From NCBI RefSeq assembly GCF_024502345.1, contig NZ_JALDNN010000001.1: DNA of 64,000 nt. One strand, written 5' to 3'. This document shows positions 6,707-48,424 of the stretch, piece after piece. Origin of the DNA: Escherichia coli. Its GTDB lineage: Bacteria; Pseudomonadota; Gammaproteobacteria; Enterobacterales; Enterobacteriaceae. The position numbers and the translations under genes were made by a program. A model generated the notes under the pieces. The model saw only the letters and a list, made by a program, of their open reading frames with translations. It was not told where the DNA came from and did no database searches. Within the stretch, counting starts at the first letter, position 1. Each line of letters starts with the position of its first letter.

Positions 6707-7495
6707 ATGGCCTATCGTTCCGCACCGCTCTATGAAGATGTCATCTGGCGAACACATCTCCAGCCGCAGGATGCTGGGCTTGCACAAGCCGTACGGGCGA
6801 TGATCGCCAAACATCGTGAACATTTGCTCGAGTTTATCCGCCTGGATGAACCCGCTCCGCTTAACGCCATGACGCTGGCGCAATGGTCATCACCGAATGC
6901 GCTAAGTTCTCTACTGGCGGTCTATTCCGATCATATCTATCGCAACCAACCAACGATGATCCGCGAGAACAAACCGCTGATCTCACTATGGGCACAATGG
7001 TATATCGGCCTGATGGTGCCACCATTAATGCTGGCGCTACTGACGCAGGAAAAGGCATTAGATGTGTCGCCGGAACATTTCCATGCTGAGTTTCACGAAA
7101 CCGGACGCGTCGCCTGTTTCTGGGTCGATGTGTGTGAAGATAAAAACGCAACACCACATTCGCCGCAGCATCGAATGGAAACGTTAATCAGCCAGGCGCT
7201 GGTTCCGGTTGTGCAAGCACTAGAAGCGACCGGAGAGATCAACGGCAAACTTATCTGGAGTAATACCGGTTATTTGATCAACTGGTATCTCACTGAGATG
7301 AAGCAACTGCTCGGCGAGGCTACTGTTGAATCGCTGCGTCATGCCCTCTTTTTTGAGAAAACGCTCACGAACGGTGAAGATAATCCACTCTGGCGTACCG
7401 TGGTGCTACGCGACGGCCTGCTGGTGCGCCGCACTTGCTGCCAGCGTTATCGCTTACCGGATGTGCAGCAATGTGGCGATTGTACGCTGAAATGA
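6707..7495 (+). CDS. fhuF: Ferric-siderophore reductase FhuF
   Basis: 262-aa ORF ending in the 2Fe-2S Cys cluster CCQRYRLPDVQQCGDC. Confidence 0.9.
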   Translation: MAYRSAPLYEDVIWRTHLQPQDAGLAQAVRAMIAKHREHLLEFIRLDEPAPLNAMTLAQWSSPNALSSLLAVYSDHIYRNQPTMIRENKPLISLWAQWYIGLMVPPLMLALLTQEKALDVSPEHFHAEFHETGRVACFWVDVCEDKNATPHSPQHRMETLISQALVPVVQALEATGEINGKLIWSNTGYLINWYLTEMKQLLGEATVESLRHALFFEKTLTNGEDNPLWRTVVLRDGLLVRRTCCQRYRLPDVQQCGDCTLK

Positions 7496-7532
7496 AAGCA
7501 CTGCCGGGGAAGTAAACCCGGCATCATGCGGA

Positions 7533-8210
7533 TTAATAGGGATGCAACACATTACTTGTTTCGCAATGCCGCATACATAACAGAATATCTGCGGCCTCCA
7601 ACAACCCTGCGTCAGAACTGACGCCCAGTTTCGACATCACATTAAATTTATGTGCACGGATCGTTTTGATATTGCGTTTAAGCTGCTCGGCAATTTGTGT
7701 CATTGAGTAGCCACGCGACATAAAGCGCAATATTTCTCTCTCCGTCGGGCTTAACGTCCGGCTTTGGTTAATGTACCACTGATTGTTCAGTCGGTCGGTC
7801 GCCTGACGTACACCATTTAATGACAAAAAGAGTTCCTGATGAAAAATCTCCAGCGTTGACGCTTTACTTAATACACCGTCCAGCGGTGATGGCGACAATG
7901 AACCAATCAGCCGAGCTTCAATATCATCATCCGCAATAACTAAACGCCGGGTACGCGGAAACTTAATCGCCAGTTCAGTCAGGCAAGATAATCCCTCTCT
8001 GCGCTCACTTCTCATGGCAGAAAAAGAAAAAATGACCGCCGCAAACGAGATCCGCGACATGGCATCCTGAAATGACTCCTGACTGGTATAGGTATGGAGC
8101 TTATAAGGGTTGCCCGCAAACTTTCTGAATAAACTCTCAATACCGATACTACTCATGACGCATTTTTCTATGAGTGCGACATTTCTCTTCTTAATTCGGC
8201 AGTGTTCCAT
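7533..8210 (-). CDS. bglJ: LuxR-family transcriptional activator BglJ
   Basis: 225-aa ORF with C-terminal LuxR-type HTH ([25 protein letters not shown]); overlaps the yjjQ 3' end. Confidence 0.85.
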
Positions 8211-8371
8211 TCTGCGGCATCTCCATAAACAGAAGGCAAGTTAAGTTCTCTTGCACCCTGCGCGCTATTTATCCATGCATACATTTCAGCGTTGCTGTGA
8301 ATTGCCAGTCGACGCATCGCACTGTTTTTTTGGGCGCTGATAGTTTTATTACTTTTCTTAAGCAATGAAGC
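8168..8371 (-). pseudogene. yjjQ: yjjQ 3' fragment (C-terminal 67 codons), separated from the 5' part by IS30
   Basis: Encodes ...[65 protein letters not shown]. Together with 9593-10116 (minus the 2-bp duplication) it restores a 726-nt, 241-aa LuxR-family gene. Confidence 0.85.
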
Positions 8372-9592
8372 TGTAGATTCAATTGGTCAACGCAACAGTT
8401 ATGTGAAAACATGGGGTTGCGGAGGTTTTTTGAATGAGACGAACATTTACAGCAGAGGAAAAAGCCTCTGTTTTTGAACTATGGAAGAACGGAACAGGCT
8501 TCAGTGAAATAGCGAATATCCTGGGTTCAAAACCCGGAACGATCTTCACTATGTTAAGGGATACTGGCGGCATAAAACCCCATGAGCGTAAGCGGGCTGT
8601 AGCTCACCTGACACTGTCTGAGCGCGAGGAGATACGAGCTGGTTTGTCAGCCAAAATGAGCATTCGTGCGATAGCTACTGCGCTGAATCGCAGTCCTTCG
8701 ACGATCTCACGTGAAGTTCAGCGTAATCGGGGCAGACGCTATTACAAAGCTGTTGATGCTAATAACCGAGCCAACAGAATGGCGAAAAGGCCAAAACCGT
8801 GCTTACTGGATCAAAATTTACCATTGCGAAAGCTTGTTCTGGAAAAGCTGGAGATGAAATGGTCTCCAGAGCAAATATCAGGATGGTTAAGGCGAACAAA
8901 ACCACGTCAAAAAACGCTGCGAATATCACCTGAGACAATTTATAAAACGCTGTACTTTCGTAGCCGTGAAGCGCTACACCACCTGAATATACAGCATCTG
9001 CGACGGTCGCATAGCCTTCGCCATGGCAGGCGTCATACCCGCAAAGGCGAAAGAGGTACGATTAACATAGTGAACGGAACACCAATTCACGAACGTTCCC
9101 GAAATATCGATAACAGACGCTCTCTGGGGCATTGGGAGGGCGATTTAGTCTCAGGTACAAAAAACTCTCATATAGCCACACTTGTAGACCGAAAATCACG
9201 TTATACGATCATCCTTAGACTCAGGGGCAAAGATTCTGTCTCAGTAAATCAGGCTCTTACCGACAAATTCCTGAGTTTACCGTCAGAACTCAGAAAATCA
9301 CTGACATGGGACAGAGGAATGGAACTGGCCAGACATCTAGAATTTACTGTCAGCACCGGCGTTAAAGTTTACTTCTGCGATCCTCAGAGTCCTTGGCAGC
9401 GGGGAACAAATGAGAACACAAATGGGCTAATTCGGCAGTACTTTCCTAAAAAGACATGTCTTGCCCAATATACTCAACATGAACTAGATCTGGTTGCTGC
9501 TCAGCTAAACAACAGACCGAGAAAGACACTGAAGTTCAAAACACCGAAAGAGATAATTGAAAGGGGTGTTGCATTGACAGATTGAATCTACA
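8372..9592 (+). mobile_element. IS30: IS30 insertion sequence (1221 bp) with 2-bp GC target-site duplication
   Basis: Left end tgtagattcaattggtcaacgcaacag, right end ...attgaatctaca (inverted repeat); flanking GC at 8370-8371 and 9593-9594; single 383-aa transposase. Confidence 0.9.
8434..9585 (+). CDS. insI: IS30-family transposase
   Basis: 383-aa ORF with N-terminal HTH and DDE region (HWEGDLV...), recognised as the IS30 transposase. Confidence 0.9.
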
Positions 9593-10116
9593 GCTATCTG
9601 GTTGATGCCCCATCCTTTACCTAGTAGCCGCAGTACCTTGCGCTCTGAAAGAGTGAGAATGACGGAGCGATAGCTAAAATCATGAGTTTCAGTCATTGCC
9701 GGGGAGGTCAGCATGGTGCTGATACGCTCTGCGTGCGTATTGCCGGAACGTACGGTCTTGACCAGATTCTCAATGGGTTCAACATCAGACAATAACGTCG
9801 CCGTAGGGCACATGAGTAATTCTACTGCCTGGGAATACCAGGAGCGTGACACCATGAAAACCCAGTGAATTTCCCGATATTGTGAGATTAAAGAATAATA
9901 ATGTTCACAAACAGAACGTGGATCTTCACTTTCACCGGCTAAATCAGCAATGACTAATCCGGAACGACGTAATTGTAATAAGGTAAGGTTCTCCGCAGAG
10001 GCGCTGGATATTATTTCATATTCAGGGAAGTGAGTCCTCATGACCTCTTTTAACCCTGCTTGCATAACAGGTATTTTACTGATAACAATTCCATTTTTGC
10101 AGCATCCTGGCAACAT
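9593..10116 (-). pseudogene. yjjQ: yjjQ 5' fragment (N-terminal part), interrupted by IS30
   Basis: [25 protein letters not shown]...GWGINQIA then reads into the IS30 end. Confidence 0.85.
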
Positions 10117-10736
10117 ATTTCCTCCACATCCACTGTCTAAAAATTATGATGGTTTATTCAGGATATTCATTCCTTAAATGTTTCCAGCAAATTAATAGAT
10201 TAAGCGAATAAATTATCCTTAGCATTCACTTTCATATCAGCATACTCCTGCTGCACAACAACTCCACTGCATGTGTCAGAAGGTTAGCATCAAATGATAA
10301 CCTGGTGAAATAGCCTGGAGACATTTAAAATATCTACATTAAGTTGTTAGGGATACTTAATGAAAAACAGAAATCACATTCATTTAATTTATAATTAAAT
10401 GATATCCCTTCCCGCAGAATGCGGGAATCACACAATCAATATTTATTCAATAAAATCTGATGATTTTAACTTGTTAACACTAAAAAACGCGCCCAGCTAT
10501 CTATTATCCTGACCCGTAAAGGCTAAAACAATAAATTCATTATAGTGATAATATTCATGTGATAGTTTGTTTGCGGCGAGAGATAATTCGCTTTTTATCA
10601 CCGAGCTTGTCCCGATAACCAGGATTAATCAGCGCAATTTTGATCTTAACCTACCGCAAAACAACCGTGCTTCATGATACAAATGGATTCTCATTATCTG
10701 AACAATACGCAGCACGTCTATGACAAAGGGCGAGTT

Positions 10737-11507
10737 ATGCAAACTGAGCAACAGCGAGCCGTAACACGGCTTTGTATCCAGTGTGGATTATTTCTTTTGC
10801 AACATGGTGCGGAAAGCGCGTTGGTTGATGAGCTTTCCTCACGACTGGGTCGGGCGCTGGGAATGGACAGTGTCGAAAGTTCTATCTCTTCGAACGCCAT
10901 AGTGCTGACAACTATTAAAGATGGGCAATGCCTGACATCGACACGTAAAAATCACGATCGCGGCATTAATATGCATGTGGTGACTGAAGTCCAGCACATT
11001 GTGATTCTTGCGGAGCATCATCTGCTGGATTACAAAGGCGTAGAGAAACGATTTAGCCAAATTCAGCCATTACGTTACCCAAGATGGCTGGTAGCCTTAA
11101 TGGTTGGCCTTTCTTGCGCCTGTTTCTGTAAACTCAGTAACGGTGGCTGGGATGGTGCCGTCATCACCTTCTTTGCCAGTACGACCGCGATGTATATCCG
11201 CCAGCTGCTGGCACAACGTCATCTTCATCCACAGATCAACTTTTGCCTTACCGCTTTCGCCGCCACCACCATTTCCGGATTGCTTTTGCAACTCCCCACT
11301 TTCAGCAATACCCCCACCATTGCGATGGCCGCCAGCGTTCTGCTGCTGGTGCCGGGCTTTCCGTTGATTAATGCCGTCGCCGATATGTTTAAAGGCCACA
11401 TCAATACCGGACTGGCACGCTGGGCGATCGCCAGTCTGCTGACACTGGCTACCTGCGTCGGCGTAGTGATGGCACTGACGATTTGGGGTCTACGCGGATG
11501 GGTGTGA
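10737..11507 (+). CDS. yjjP: Inner-membrane protein YjjP (ThrE-family exporter-like, DUF1212)
   Basis: 256 aa from the internal Met [12 protein letters not shown]...; conserved position divergent from yjjQ. Confidence 0.8.
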
Positions 11508-11971
11508 TCGAATTTCTGTTAGCGTTGGCGCAGGATATGATCCTCGCCGCCATTCCTGCGGTCGGCTTTGCGATGGTGTTCAACGTTCCCGTGCGGGCGT
11601 TACGCTGGTGTGCGCTGCTTGGCTCGATAGGTCATGGTTCCCGAATGATCTTGATGACCAGCGGGTTGAATATTGAGTGGTCAACCTTTATGGCTTCGAT
11701 GCTGGTCGGTACCATTGGTATTCAATGGTCGCGCTGGTATCTGGCGCATCCGAAAGTGTTTACCGTGGCGGCCGTTATCCCTATGTTCCCGGGCATATCG
11801 GCTTATACCGCAATGATTTCGGCGGTAAAAATCAGCCAGTTAGGTTACAGCGAACCGTTGATGATTACCCTGTTAACCAACTTTCTTACAGCTTCATCGA
11901 TTGTTGGTGCGTTATCCATCGGTCTTTCCATTCCTGGATTATGGTTGTACCGCAAGCGCCCTCGCGTATAA
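11498..11971 (+). CDS. yjjB: Inner-membrane protein YjjB (DUF3815)
   Basis: 157-aa hydrophobic ORF overlapping the yjjP stop. Confidence 0.8.
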
Positions 11972-43111: not shown

Positions 43112-44385
43112 TGGCAGGGTTAAATAAATATCAGGCGTATCCGGAGTATAGGGATTCTGGGGTGGAGTGGTTGGGGGAGATTCCTGCTCATTGGGAAACG
43201 TTACAGCATAAATACGTCGCATATTATACTAAGGGCAAAAATCCTTCTTTTTTGCTCGATACCCCAACAAAGAACACCCTACCTTATCTTTCTATGGATT
43301 GTTTAAGAAATAACTCCATAGATAAATATGCTATAGTATCTAATGATATTCGTATTGCATTAGAGGGACAACCACTTATTATTTGGGATGGTTCTAATGC
43401 TGGGGAATTTGTCAAAGGCCGAAAAGGTATTTTATCCTCAACGATGGCCTCTGCAACGCTTAATTATCCTTTGCACATGCAATATTACTGGTATTTATGC
43501 ACTGCAATTGAATCTGAAATGCGTAAACATGCAAATGGTATGGGTATCCCTCATGTAAATGGAGAAGAATTAAAGAACATTCATCTAAGTATCCCTTCAA
43601 TAACCGAACAAAAAAGCATCGCTGGTTTTCTTGAATTTGAAACAACGAAAATTTCGAACCTTATAGAAAAACAACAACAACTAATTGAATTACTAAAAGA
43701 AAAACGTCAGGTCGTGATTAGCCATGCGGTCACAAAAGGGCTAAATCCTGACGTGCCGATGAAAGATTCTGGGGTTAAGTGGTTGGGGGAAGTTCCAAAA
43801 CACTGGCACATATGCAAGTTAAAATGGTTTGCTAATTTGAAAAGTGGTGATTTTATAACCAGCAATTCAATAGAACCAGAAGGAAACTATCCTGTATATG
43901 GTGGAAATGGATTAAGAGGATATTATTCTTATTTTACACACAATGGTGAATATGTTCTTATTGGTAGACAAGGTGCTCTTTGCGGAAATATAAATTACGC
44001 AATTGGAAAGTTTTGGGCTTCAGAACATGCTGTTGTTGTCACCCCAAACGAAAGAGCTGTTACAATATGGTTAGGAGAATTATTAAGAATAATGAACTTA
44101 AACCAATATTCAGTTTCTGCTGCACAACCGGGGCTTGCGGTTGAAAGAATTACTGATTTATATATTCCAATCCCACCATATCAAGAGCAAATAAATATCG
44201 GAACTTATATATCTAAATATATTTCTCTAGATAAAAAATTGATTGAGCATAGTACAGATAATATTGAACTCCTCAAAGAACGCCGCACCGCCCTTATCTC
44301 CGCCGCCGTCACCGGCAAAATTGATCTACGCAACTGGACCGCGCCCATCCCCGAAGCGGAAACACCCACGGAGGCCAGCGCATGA
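43111..44385 (+). CDS. hsdS: Type I restriction-modification specificity subunit
   Basis: 424-aa ORF with internal duplication (RDSGVEWLGEIPAHWE / KDSGVKWLGEVPKHWH; LIELLKEKRQVVIS / NIELLKERRTALIS) and two AT-rich target-recognition domains; start overlaps the hsdM stop. Confidence 0.85.
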   Translation: MAGLNKYQAYPEYRDSGVEWLGEIPAHWETLQHKYVAYYTKGKNPSFLLDTPTKNTLPYLSMDCLRNNSIDKYAIVSNDIRIALEGQPLIIWDGSNAGEFVKGRKGILSSTMASATLNYPLHMQYYWYLCTAIESEMRKHANGMGIPHVNGEELKNIHLSIPSITEQKSIAGFLEFETTKISNLIEKQQQLIELLKEKRQVVISHAVTKGLNPDVPMKDSGVKWLGEVPKHWHICKLKWFANLKSGDFITSNSIEPEGNYPVYGGNGLRGYYSYFTHNGEYVLIGRQGALCGNINYAIGKFWASEHAVVVTPNERAVTIWLGELLRIMNLNQYSVSAAQPGLAVERITDLYIPIPPYQEQINIGTYISKYISLDKKLIEHSTDNIELLKERRTALISAAVTGKIDLRNWTAPIPEAETPTEASA

Positions 44386-47710: not shown

Positions 47711-48424
47711 ATGCTGAAGATGATTAAAGATTTTAAATTCAAAAAATACATTAAAAAATTACGTGAAGAAGGTTTGTTATTTTATGTTTCTTTCGGGTTT
47801 ATATTTACATTGTTAATGGAAGTTGATGATCGATTACCGTACTATCTTCAACAAGACTTCTTTTTTTATACACTTATAGGATTTATGCCAATCAATATAT
47901 TCTTTGTTTTGATTTGCACATATATATTTTTCAATGCCGTCCATGCGCTTATTTCACCATATAAATTTCAAAGAATTGGTGAGAAATTCCTCTCTGAACT
48001 TGATAAAAGAACACAACAAATTGGCTTTATTATTTCATTCATATGTTTTGGCATGACTTTGTTTTGTGCACTGGTGTGGTTGCTGTTTTTTGAAATGAAT
48101 ACTGAAAGTTACTACGCAAAATATACATTAAATTTTTTAGCTGCTTTTATCATTATGATTATAATTTCTTCAGTAGTTAATCCAGTAATGAACAGAACAT
48201 TCCAAAAAATGAAGGAATCGGACTCACATGGAAATTCAAAAATAATTCTTATAATTATAATCATTATATTGTTGCTATTATTACCAATTGCGTGCATTAT
48301 CAATAAAAATAAAACAATTGAAATCAATATTAAGAAAGAAACCTATCAGCAAATAAAAGAAAAAACAAAGATAAAACCAGAAGATTATATCAAAAAATTG
48401 ATTACTGATATTAAATTCAACTAA
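47711..48424 (+). CDS. Hypothetical AT-rich integral membrane protein (about five TM helices), no recognisable family
   Basis: 237-aa ORF with about 28 % GC beside roughly 50 % GC neighbours; hydrophobic helices such as FFFYTLIGFMPINIFFVLICTYIFF and IILIIIIIILLLLLPIACII; Lys-rich termini; aagga SD 7 nt upstream. Confidence 0.5.
   Translation: MLKMIKDFKFKKYIKKLREEGLLFYVSFGFIFTLLMEVDDRLPYYLQQDFFFYTLIGFMPINIFFVLICTYIFFNAVHALISPYKFQRIGEKFLSELDKRTQQIGFIISFICFGMTLFCALVWLLFFEMNTESYYAKYTLNFLAAFIIMIIISSVVNPVMNRTFQKMKESDSHGNSKIILIIIIIILLLLLPIACIINKNKTIEINIKKETYQQIKEKTKIKPEDYIKKLITDIKFN

Follow-up and report, generated by a model that had tools for sequence, protein, structure and literature searches.

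What is the long AT-rich stretch that separates the divergent genes yjjQ and yjjP in Escherichia coli, and what can it still control in a strain where an insertion sequence has split one of those genes? We addressed both questions in a window of 64,000 nucleotides, meaning the whole stretch of DNA analysed here, in which the neighbourhood reads fhuF-bglJ-yjjQ / yjjP-yjjB-dnaT, as in E. coli. Megablast of positions 7400–11600 found matches in 5425 of 5426 complete E. coli genomes, and the RefSeq annotation of near-identical genomes puts the minus-strand start of yjjQ at 10116 and the ATG of yjjP at 10737. The 620 bp from 10117 to 10736 thus make up the entire intergenic interval, exactly the coordinates proposed in an earlier, sequence-only reading of this DNA, which had also named the two genes and their divergent layout correctly, as megablast and RefSeq annotation show. 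NCBIfam and Pfam confirmed the identities of BglJ, the IS30 transposase, YjjB and the ThrE-family protein YjjP. The features discussed below are collected in Table 1.

Table 1. Features of the yjjQ/yjjP spacer and its flanks, in window positions.
Feature	Position	Strand	Basis
AT-rich divergent yjjQ/yjjP spacer	10117..10736	.	RefSeq boundaries; 34.8% GC; single copy, 5423/5426 genomes
yjjP, ThrE-family	10737..11507	+	Pfam ThrE 4.8e-69; 'putative succinate exporter YjjP' in K-12 record
yjjB, downstream of yjjP	11498-11971	+	NF007391 match
bglJ, second gene of the spacer-driven operon	7533..8210	-	NF008548 BglJ 2.5e-115; annotation
IS30, antisense to yjjQ-bglJ	8372..9592	+	1221 bp, imperfect terminal inverted repeats, 'GC' duplication, NF033563 3e-82
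5' yjjQ fragment, first 524 nt	9593..10116	-	Frame continues into IS30, stop at 9505
3' yjjQ fragment, overlaps bglJ start	8168..8371	-	Alignment to uninterrupted reference
Predicted sigma-70 promoter toward yjjQ, CTGATA-17-GATAAT	10212..10240	-	Consensus scan; same as Shimada 2014 prediction in RpoD SELEX peak
Predicted sigma-70 promoter toward yjjP, ATGAAA-17-TTTAAT	10360..10388	+	Shimada 2014 prediction; ~350 bp upstream of yjjP ATG
MarA marbox GCATCAAATGATAAC	10287..10301	+	Exact match to H10407 predicted marbox under ChIP-seq peak
Cross-genus partly conserved block, palindrome CATTAAGT-N10-ACTTAATG (10337-10362)	10323..10362	.	Conservation profile, alignment, inverted repeat
Hypervariable AT-rich centre, unalignable outside Escherichia	10400..10550	.	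K-12 alignment, allele frequencies, cross-genus profile
Allele-specific perfect hairpin TTCCCGCA-GAA-TGCGGGAA, 8 bp/3 nt	10409..10427	.	Inverted repeat; DNA folding
Strongest conserved block near yjjP: TTGATCT; TGnTAnAA, extended -10-like	10636..10684	.	Profile over 47 non-Escherichia species
Conserved island, yjjQ ribosome-binding region	10117-10135		Cross-genus profile
Conserved island	~10545-10555		Cross-genus profile
Conserved island, yjjP ribosome-binding region			Cross-genus profile

The composition of the spacer stands out from its surroundings. The GC content of 34.8% compares with 50.5% for the window, and only 1.9% of 620-bp segments are as low; A/T runs of at least 8 number 14.5 per kb, 4.5-fold more than the 3.2 per kb of the window, and the minimum over 100 bp, at 10306, is 23% GC. 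As a reference set we took the 27 spacers that PS10-3, a near-identical strain, has in 50 kb; their GC content is 45.8%. No spacer in this set is longer (the median is 140 bp against its 620), and only two short divergent ones, hpaR/hpaG (28.8%) and yjjZ/fhuF (32.1%), are lower in GC. The spacer is unusual in combining length with a high AT content. The sequence-only reading had called it 'extremely AT-rich'; with lower-GC spacers nearby, 'extremely' is too strong, but a long and clearly AT-rich stretch of the kind found at H-NS-silenced promoter regions is present. The two A/T strings quoted in that reading fared differently: ttaatttataattaaatgat lies at 10384, whereas 'aaatattt' is absent from the whole window, the nearest string being 'caatatttatt' at 10437. 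Three other 620-bp stretches of the window are similarly poor in GC, near 43600 (34.5%), 47800 (26.3%) and 63375 (34.4%); their positions in a collinear reference put them within the hsd/mcr island of restriction genes or slightly past it, and the stretch near 47800 exceeds the yjjQ/yjjP spacer in AT content.

Such a composition could reflect nothing more than two divergent promoters with the low GC usual for promoters and no special silencing. The neighbouring divergent spacers are of similar or lower GC (lgoD/lgoR at 35.5%, in addition to the two named above), and signals within the spacer are not significantly enriched over what its composition predicts. Matches to the high-affinity H-NS nucleation 10-mer (TCGATAAATT-like, at most 2 mismatches) numbered 4, where dinucleotide shuffles give 1.85 ± 1.3 and reach 4 in 11% of cases, and the 8 promoter-like sites in the spacer are not significantly enriched over an expected 4.8 ± 2.4. 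Ordinary promoter AT-richness nevertheless fits poorly with a length of 620 bp where the local median is 140, with the retention of long AT-rich spacers in 52 species, and with the H-NS binding and repression that three published studies report for the orthologous K-12 region (PMC5025477, PMC3950696, PMC3946193). We consider it very unlikely as a full account, and turn to the evidence for silencing.

The spacer is orthologous to the region studied experimentally in K-12. It belongs to the core, single-copy DNA of E. coli (5423 of 5426 complete genomes, at 95–100% identity) and is 96.9% identical to its 618-bp counterpart in K-12 MG1655, which has the same flanking genes. The differences are unevenly placed: 17 of 19 fall in 10400–10550, giving 11% divergence there and 0.4% elsewhere (2 differences in the 469 bp outside the central 151 bp). 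Because the gene-proximal parts are essentially unchanged, results obtained in K-12 should carry over. The K-12 literature states that H-NS represses and LeuO activates yjjQ-bglJ (Stratmann et al., 2008, cited in PMC5025477) and that this operon, repressed by H-NS, would be expressed in an hns stpA mutant background (PMC3950696), in agreement with what the sequence-only reading had said about H-NS and LeuO (PMC5025477, PMC3950696); published K-12 work shows yjjP, too, to be repressed by H-NS. Genomic SELEX with K-12 W3110 placed sites for both the RpoD holoenzyme and H-NS in the yjjP/yjjQ spacer, and the same study predicted a promoter for each gene, CTGATA-17-GATAAT for yjjQ and ATGAAA-17-TTTAAT for yjjP (Shimada 2014, PMC3946193).

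One regulator absent from the sequence-only reading is MarA, whose marbox from ETEC H10407 is copied exactly at 10287–10301, where it overlaps an imperfect inverted repeat at 10276–10308. In H10407, MarA ChIP-seq gave a peak in yjjP<>yjjQ with the predicted marbox gcatcaaatgataac (PMC5684230 Table 1).

The cross-species record supplies the main independent support for the H-NS interpretation. Taking one genome per species with YjjQ yielded 80 loci. By tblastn, YjjP is present in 77, and 79 have a BglJ relative downstream of yjjQ. Spacing was measured in the 74 loci where the YjjP match extends to the N-terminus. Here yjjP and yjjQ-bglJ are adjacent and divergent in 52 Enterobacteriaceae species out of 74, with spacers of 387–709 bp and 32–44% GC (mean 36.8%), compared with 51.5% for the loci and 55% for yjjP. 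Sequence is kept far less well: in the Escherichia cryptic clades and E. whittamii the spacer is 74–75% identical to ours although the YjjP protein is ~96% identical, and outside Escherichia alignment is limited to short islands. Length and composition are thus retained where sequence is not, a pattern to be expected where DNA is read largely through shape and composition, the way H-NS reads it. In the remaining 22 of 74 species, yjjP and yjjQ are separated by 1.8–2.6 kb of extra DNA with 47–55% GC, which presumably holds genes, and the divergent pairing is therefore not universal; these species include Klebsiella, Kluyvera, Raoultella, Citrobacter amalonaticus/sedlakii, Pseudocitrobacter and others (loci L010–L013, L027, L028, L030, L032–L034, L036, L043, L044, L060, L066, L067, L072, L074, L077, L078, L082 and L083).

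Among the islands listed in Table 1, the block at 10636–10684 may be the yjjP core promoter or a regulator site. An in-frame ATG at 10674, upstream of the annotated start, would lengthen YjjP from the 256 aa of the current annotation to 277 aa. Across genera, conservation drops over 10687–10725 and is regained just before 10737, in support of the 256-aa form now annotated. The start at 10674 is presumably an older one, since it fits the '555-bp' spacer length reportedly given in the Stratmann 2008 study. In that study H-NS reportedly binds away from both promoters, at the centre of the '555-bp' region; LeuO sites are likewise said to lie in the centre, one LeuO site overlapping the yjjP promoter. 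The centre, which at 10400–10550 differs from K-12 by 11%, is thus reportedly the place of the H-NS sites and some of the LeuO sites, and details could differ in this strain.

The centre has changed quickly without losing its composition, at 33.8% GC against 32.9% in K-12. Cross-genus conservation is zero over most of 10400–10550. Within E. coli, the allele of the window is in the minority: 570 genomes reach 99% identity or more to it over the central 86 bp, compared with 2888 at 90–95%. One explanation is that the centre (~10365–10530) is a decayed foreign or mobile insertion specific to Escherichia that later became a platform for H-NS nucleation, an idea compatible with the silencing described above. 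It would account for a segment that has no alignable counterpart outside Escherichia and is the most variable part of the spacer within E. coli, and for Escherichia spacers of 618–627 bp where the median over 52 species is 447 bp. However, the centre is single copy in E. coli and shows neither terminal repeats nor a target duplication; some Citrobacter and Salmonella spacers are as long (610–709 bp); and fast drift of AT-rich DNA may explain the failure to align, given that even the cryptic clades are only 74–75% identical. We regard a decayed insertion as improbable.

Part of this variation is a perfect hairpin at 10409–10427. Folded as DNA it reaches -8.7 kcal/mol (z = -4.95), compared with -1.1 kcal/mol for the K-12 allele. 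It is missing from K-12, from the IS30-bearing strain JNE132847 and from outgroup Escherichia, all of which carry ...GC-AAAA or a similar sequence there. Because it is absent from K-12 and the outgroups, the hairpin allele is derived. The surrounding 86 bp find a match in 4910 genomes, and at least 59% of these carry the segment in a more divergent, K-12-like version. A 1-bp insertion and two adjacent substitutions jointly perfect the palindrome, a cluster that looks like the signature of quasipalindrome template-switch mutation. We rejected the hairpin as a terminator or other RNA element: it is allele-specific and derived, lacks a T-run, and is absent from K-12 and the outgroups.

A stable structure in a long spacer raises the question of whether the spacer conceals an unannotated small RNA or small protein gene, for instance around this hairpin. 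The hairpin is indeed far more stable than shuffled controls (z = -4.95), and a 37-aa open reading frame at 10399–10512 spans it. Yet K-12, most E. coli and the outgroups do without the hairpin, no T-run follows it on either strand, and a 1-bp indel shifts the 37-aa frame in K-12. Nothing in the spacer matches Rfam at E ≤ 1, and the K-12 MG1655 RefSeq record has no feature annotated within the 618-bp spacer. The wider Rfam scan of 9400–11400 at E ≤ 1 gave no credible RNA family, its one chance hit (E = 0.97) being to a eukaryotic lncRNA family and lying inside yjjP. Small open reading frames of at least 20 codons in the spacer were also considered and discarded, as none is conserved and indels shift the frame between alleles. 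A hidden gene is in our view scarcely credible.

We conclude that the 620 bp are very probably a bidirectional regulatory region for yjjP and yjjQ-bglJ, silenced by H-NS and relieved by LeuO. In the proposed mechanism, one or more promoters on the left side would drive yjjQ-bglJ leftward and one or more on the right side would drive yjjPB rightward. H-NS would polymerise on the long AT-rich DNA, chiefly in the centre (~23–34% GC), reading it by composition and shape, and would keep both promoters low. LeuO, once made, would bind in the region and relieve the silencing of yjjQ-bglJ, and MarA may also bind at 10287–10301. This picture assumes that the findings from K-12 and H10407 apply unchanged to the present allele, as the alignment leads us to expect, and the exact promoter positions within the spacer are likewise predicted. 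The feature that the sequence-only reading picked out is real, and the evidence supports its interpretation, one already known from K-12.

In this strain the leftward arm runs into IS30. The sequence-only reading had placed an IS30 inside yjjQ, and the window indeed contains a complete element of ~1.2 kb at 8372–9592 (1221 bp) with imperfect inverted repeats that match at 23 of their first 26 positions, a 383-aa transposase of the family, and a 2-bp target duplication, 'GC'. Intact YjjQ has 241 aa, with a LuxR/GerE helix-turn-helix at residues 153–206. The interrupted frame encodes a 203-aa product with no Pfam match, the helix-turn-helix match being lost. YjjQ is inactivated, because IS30 splits the DNA-binding domain and leaves a product without its helix-turn-helix. 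The truncated frame ends 88 nt within IS30, after which a transcript from the spacer would carry ~1.3 kb of untranslated antisense IS30 RNA before reaching bglJ, a gene that normally overlaps yjjQ by 43 nt. That early stop and the long untranslated stretch make polarity on bglJ plausible; if it occurs, it is probably Rho-dependent, and no intrinsic terminators were predicted on the yjjQ-transcript strand through IS30. The sequence-only reading held that transcription initiated in the spacer would end or change inside the element, which seems a reasonable expectation. In this strain the rightward yjjPB output would be intact, the leftward output would be a YjjQ fragment without its DNA-binding helix-turn-helix, and bglJ would probably be little expressed owing to polarity across 1.2 kb of antisense IS30.

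The opposite outcome can also be imagined, in which IS30 activates bglJ and uncouples it from H-NS/LeuO control by the spacer, as mini-Tn10 does in the laboratory allele bglJC. There is a precedent: a transposon (mini-Tn10) in yjjQ upstream of bglJ causes constitutive bglJ expression (PMC3950696, PMC6698644), and IS30 has an internal antisense promoter that is oriented toward bglJ here (PMC9330008). According to the same review, however, neighbouring genes are not measurably affected by that internal promoter (PMC9330008), and we found no sigma-70-like site on the minus strand of IS30 or at the left junction. The outward -35 of IS30 lies in its right end and faces the spacer, not bglJ, and the -10 in the flank is poor (TCTGGT). 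For the same reason, seen in the junction sequence, we set aside a hybrid promoter built from this outward -35 (TTGACA), as a flank -10 of only TCTGGT would be weak. Activation of bglJ by IS30 is therefore doubtful in our estimation, and we keep polarity as the working interpretation.

Three genomes carry IS30 at the identical dinucleotide of yjjQ and in one orientation: that of the window and, from a survey of 5426 complete E. coli genomes, two others (NZ_AP028094.1, L001, and NZ_CM194533.1, L086). The three backgrounds are distinct haplotypes, with 52, 55 and 29 differences per ~2976 flanking positions (1.0–1.8%; 1.0% for the database pair). The IS30 copies themselves differ at 0–1 of 1221 positions, and the flank differences begin 6 bp and 32 bp from the ends of the element. 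Most parsimoniously, these would be independent insertions into an IS30 hot spot.

Recurrence might instead mean that the yjjP/yjjQ-bglJ module is a recurrent natural target of rewiring by insertion sequences and that the yjjQ insertion was selected, not a neutral hit in a hot spot. During evolution of K-12 in the mouse gut, adaptive IS1, IS2 and IS5 insertions arose at -111, -185 and -256 from yjjP (PMC5094792, PMC4674774), and in one evolved clone with a spacer insertion yjjP expression was approximately doubled aerobically (PMC5094792). A swine isolate (NZ_CM135183.1, L004) has a natural IS1 in the spacer, at 1962–2730 of that locus and equivalent to window positions 10569–10578; it lies ~160 bp upstream of yjjP and is flanked by a 9–10 bp duplication. 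This IS1 falls within the -111 to -256 zone that was hit adaptively in the mouse gut (PMC5094792, PMC4674774). If the yjjQ insertion was selected, loss of the YjjQ repressor, or disturbance of the H-NS complex over the spacer and the AT-poorer yjjQ, might raise expression of yjjPB, the succinate exporter. We hold selection of this kind to be unlikely, and retain independent hits in a hot spot as the simpler reading.

Taken together, the spacer looks like a textbook-style case of H-NS silencing and LeuO anti-silencing that feeds the BglJ-RcsB/LeuO loop, and it matters little beyond annotation. To this the analysis makes modest additions: the retention of composition and length across species, the variation in the central 150 bp, and a leftward arm that IS30 would disable in this strain, leaving yjjPB as the sole meaningful output. 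Mildly new are the packing of within-species variation into the centre, the presence of IS30 at the same site in three haplotypes, and a natural IS1 in the adaptive zone.

Three sets of known systems place the spacer in context. It resembles csgD-csgB, nanC-fimB and lrhA-alaA, long type-A spacers of stress genes, in being >500 bp, divergent and marked by SELEX sites for RNA polymerase and H-NS (PMC3946193), although far fewer regulators are documented at yjjP/yjjQ, namely H-NS, LeuO and MarA. The regulatory regions of the bgl operon and of leuO in E. coli, which belong to the same regulatory circuit, are likewise AT-rich and silenced by H-NS, with LeuO as antagonist (PMC5025477). There silencing is relieved by LeuO and by BglJ-RcsB, at separate loci with no sequence relationship to the spacer, and for bgl, IS insertions are a recurrent route to altered expression (PMC9678765). 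With the K-12 yjjP/yjjQ-bglJ region (Stratmann, Madhusudan & Schnetz 2008, J Bacteriol 190:926) the spacer shares its locus, both flanking genes and the divergent layout. Our strain differs from that region by 17 changes in the central 151 bp, a derived perfect 8-bp hairpin and an IS30-split yjjQ, whereas the gene-proximal thirds are virtually identical, and so are the marbox and the two promoters of the Shimada 2014 prediction that lie in them.
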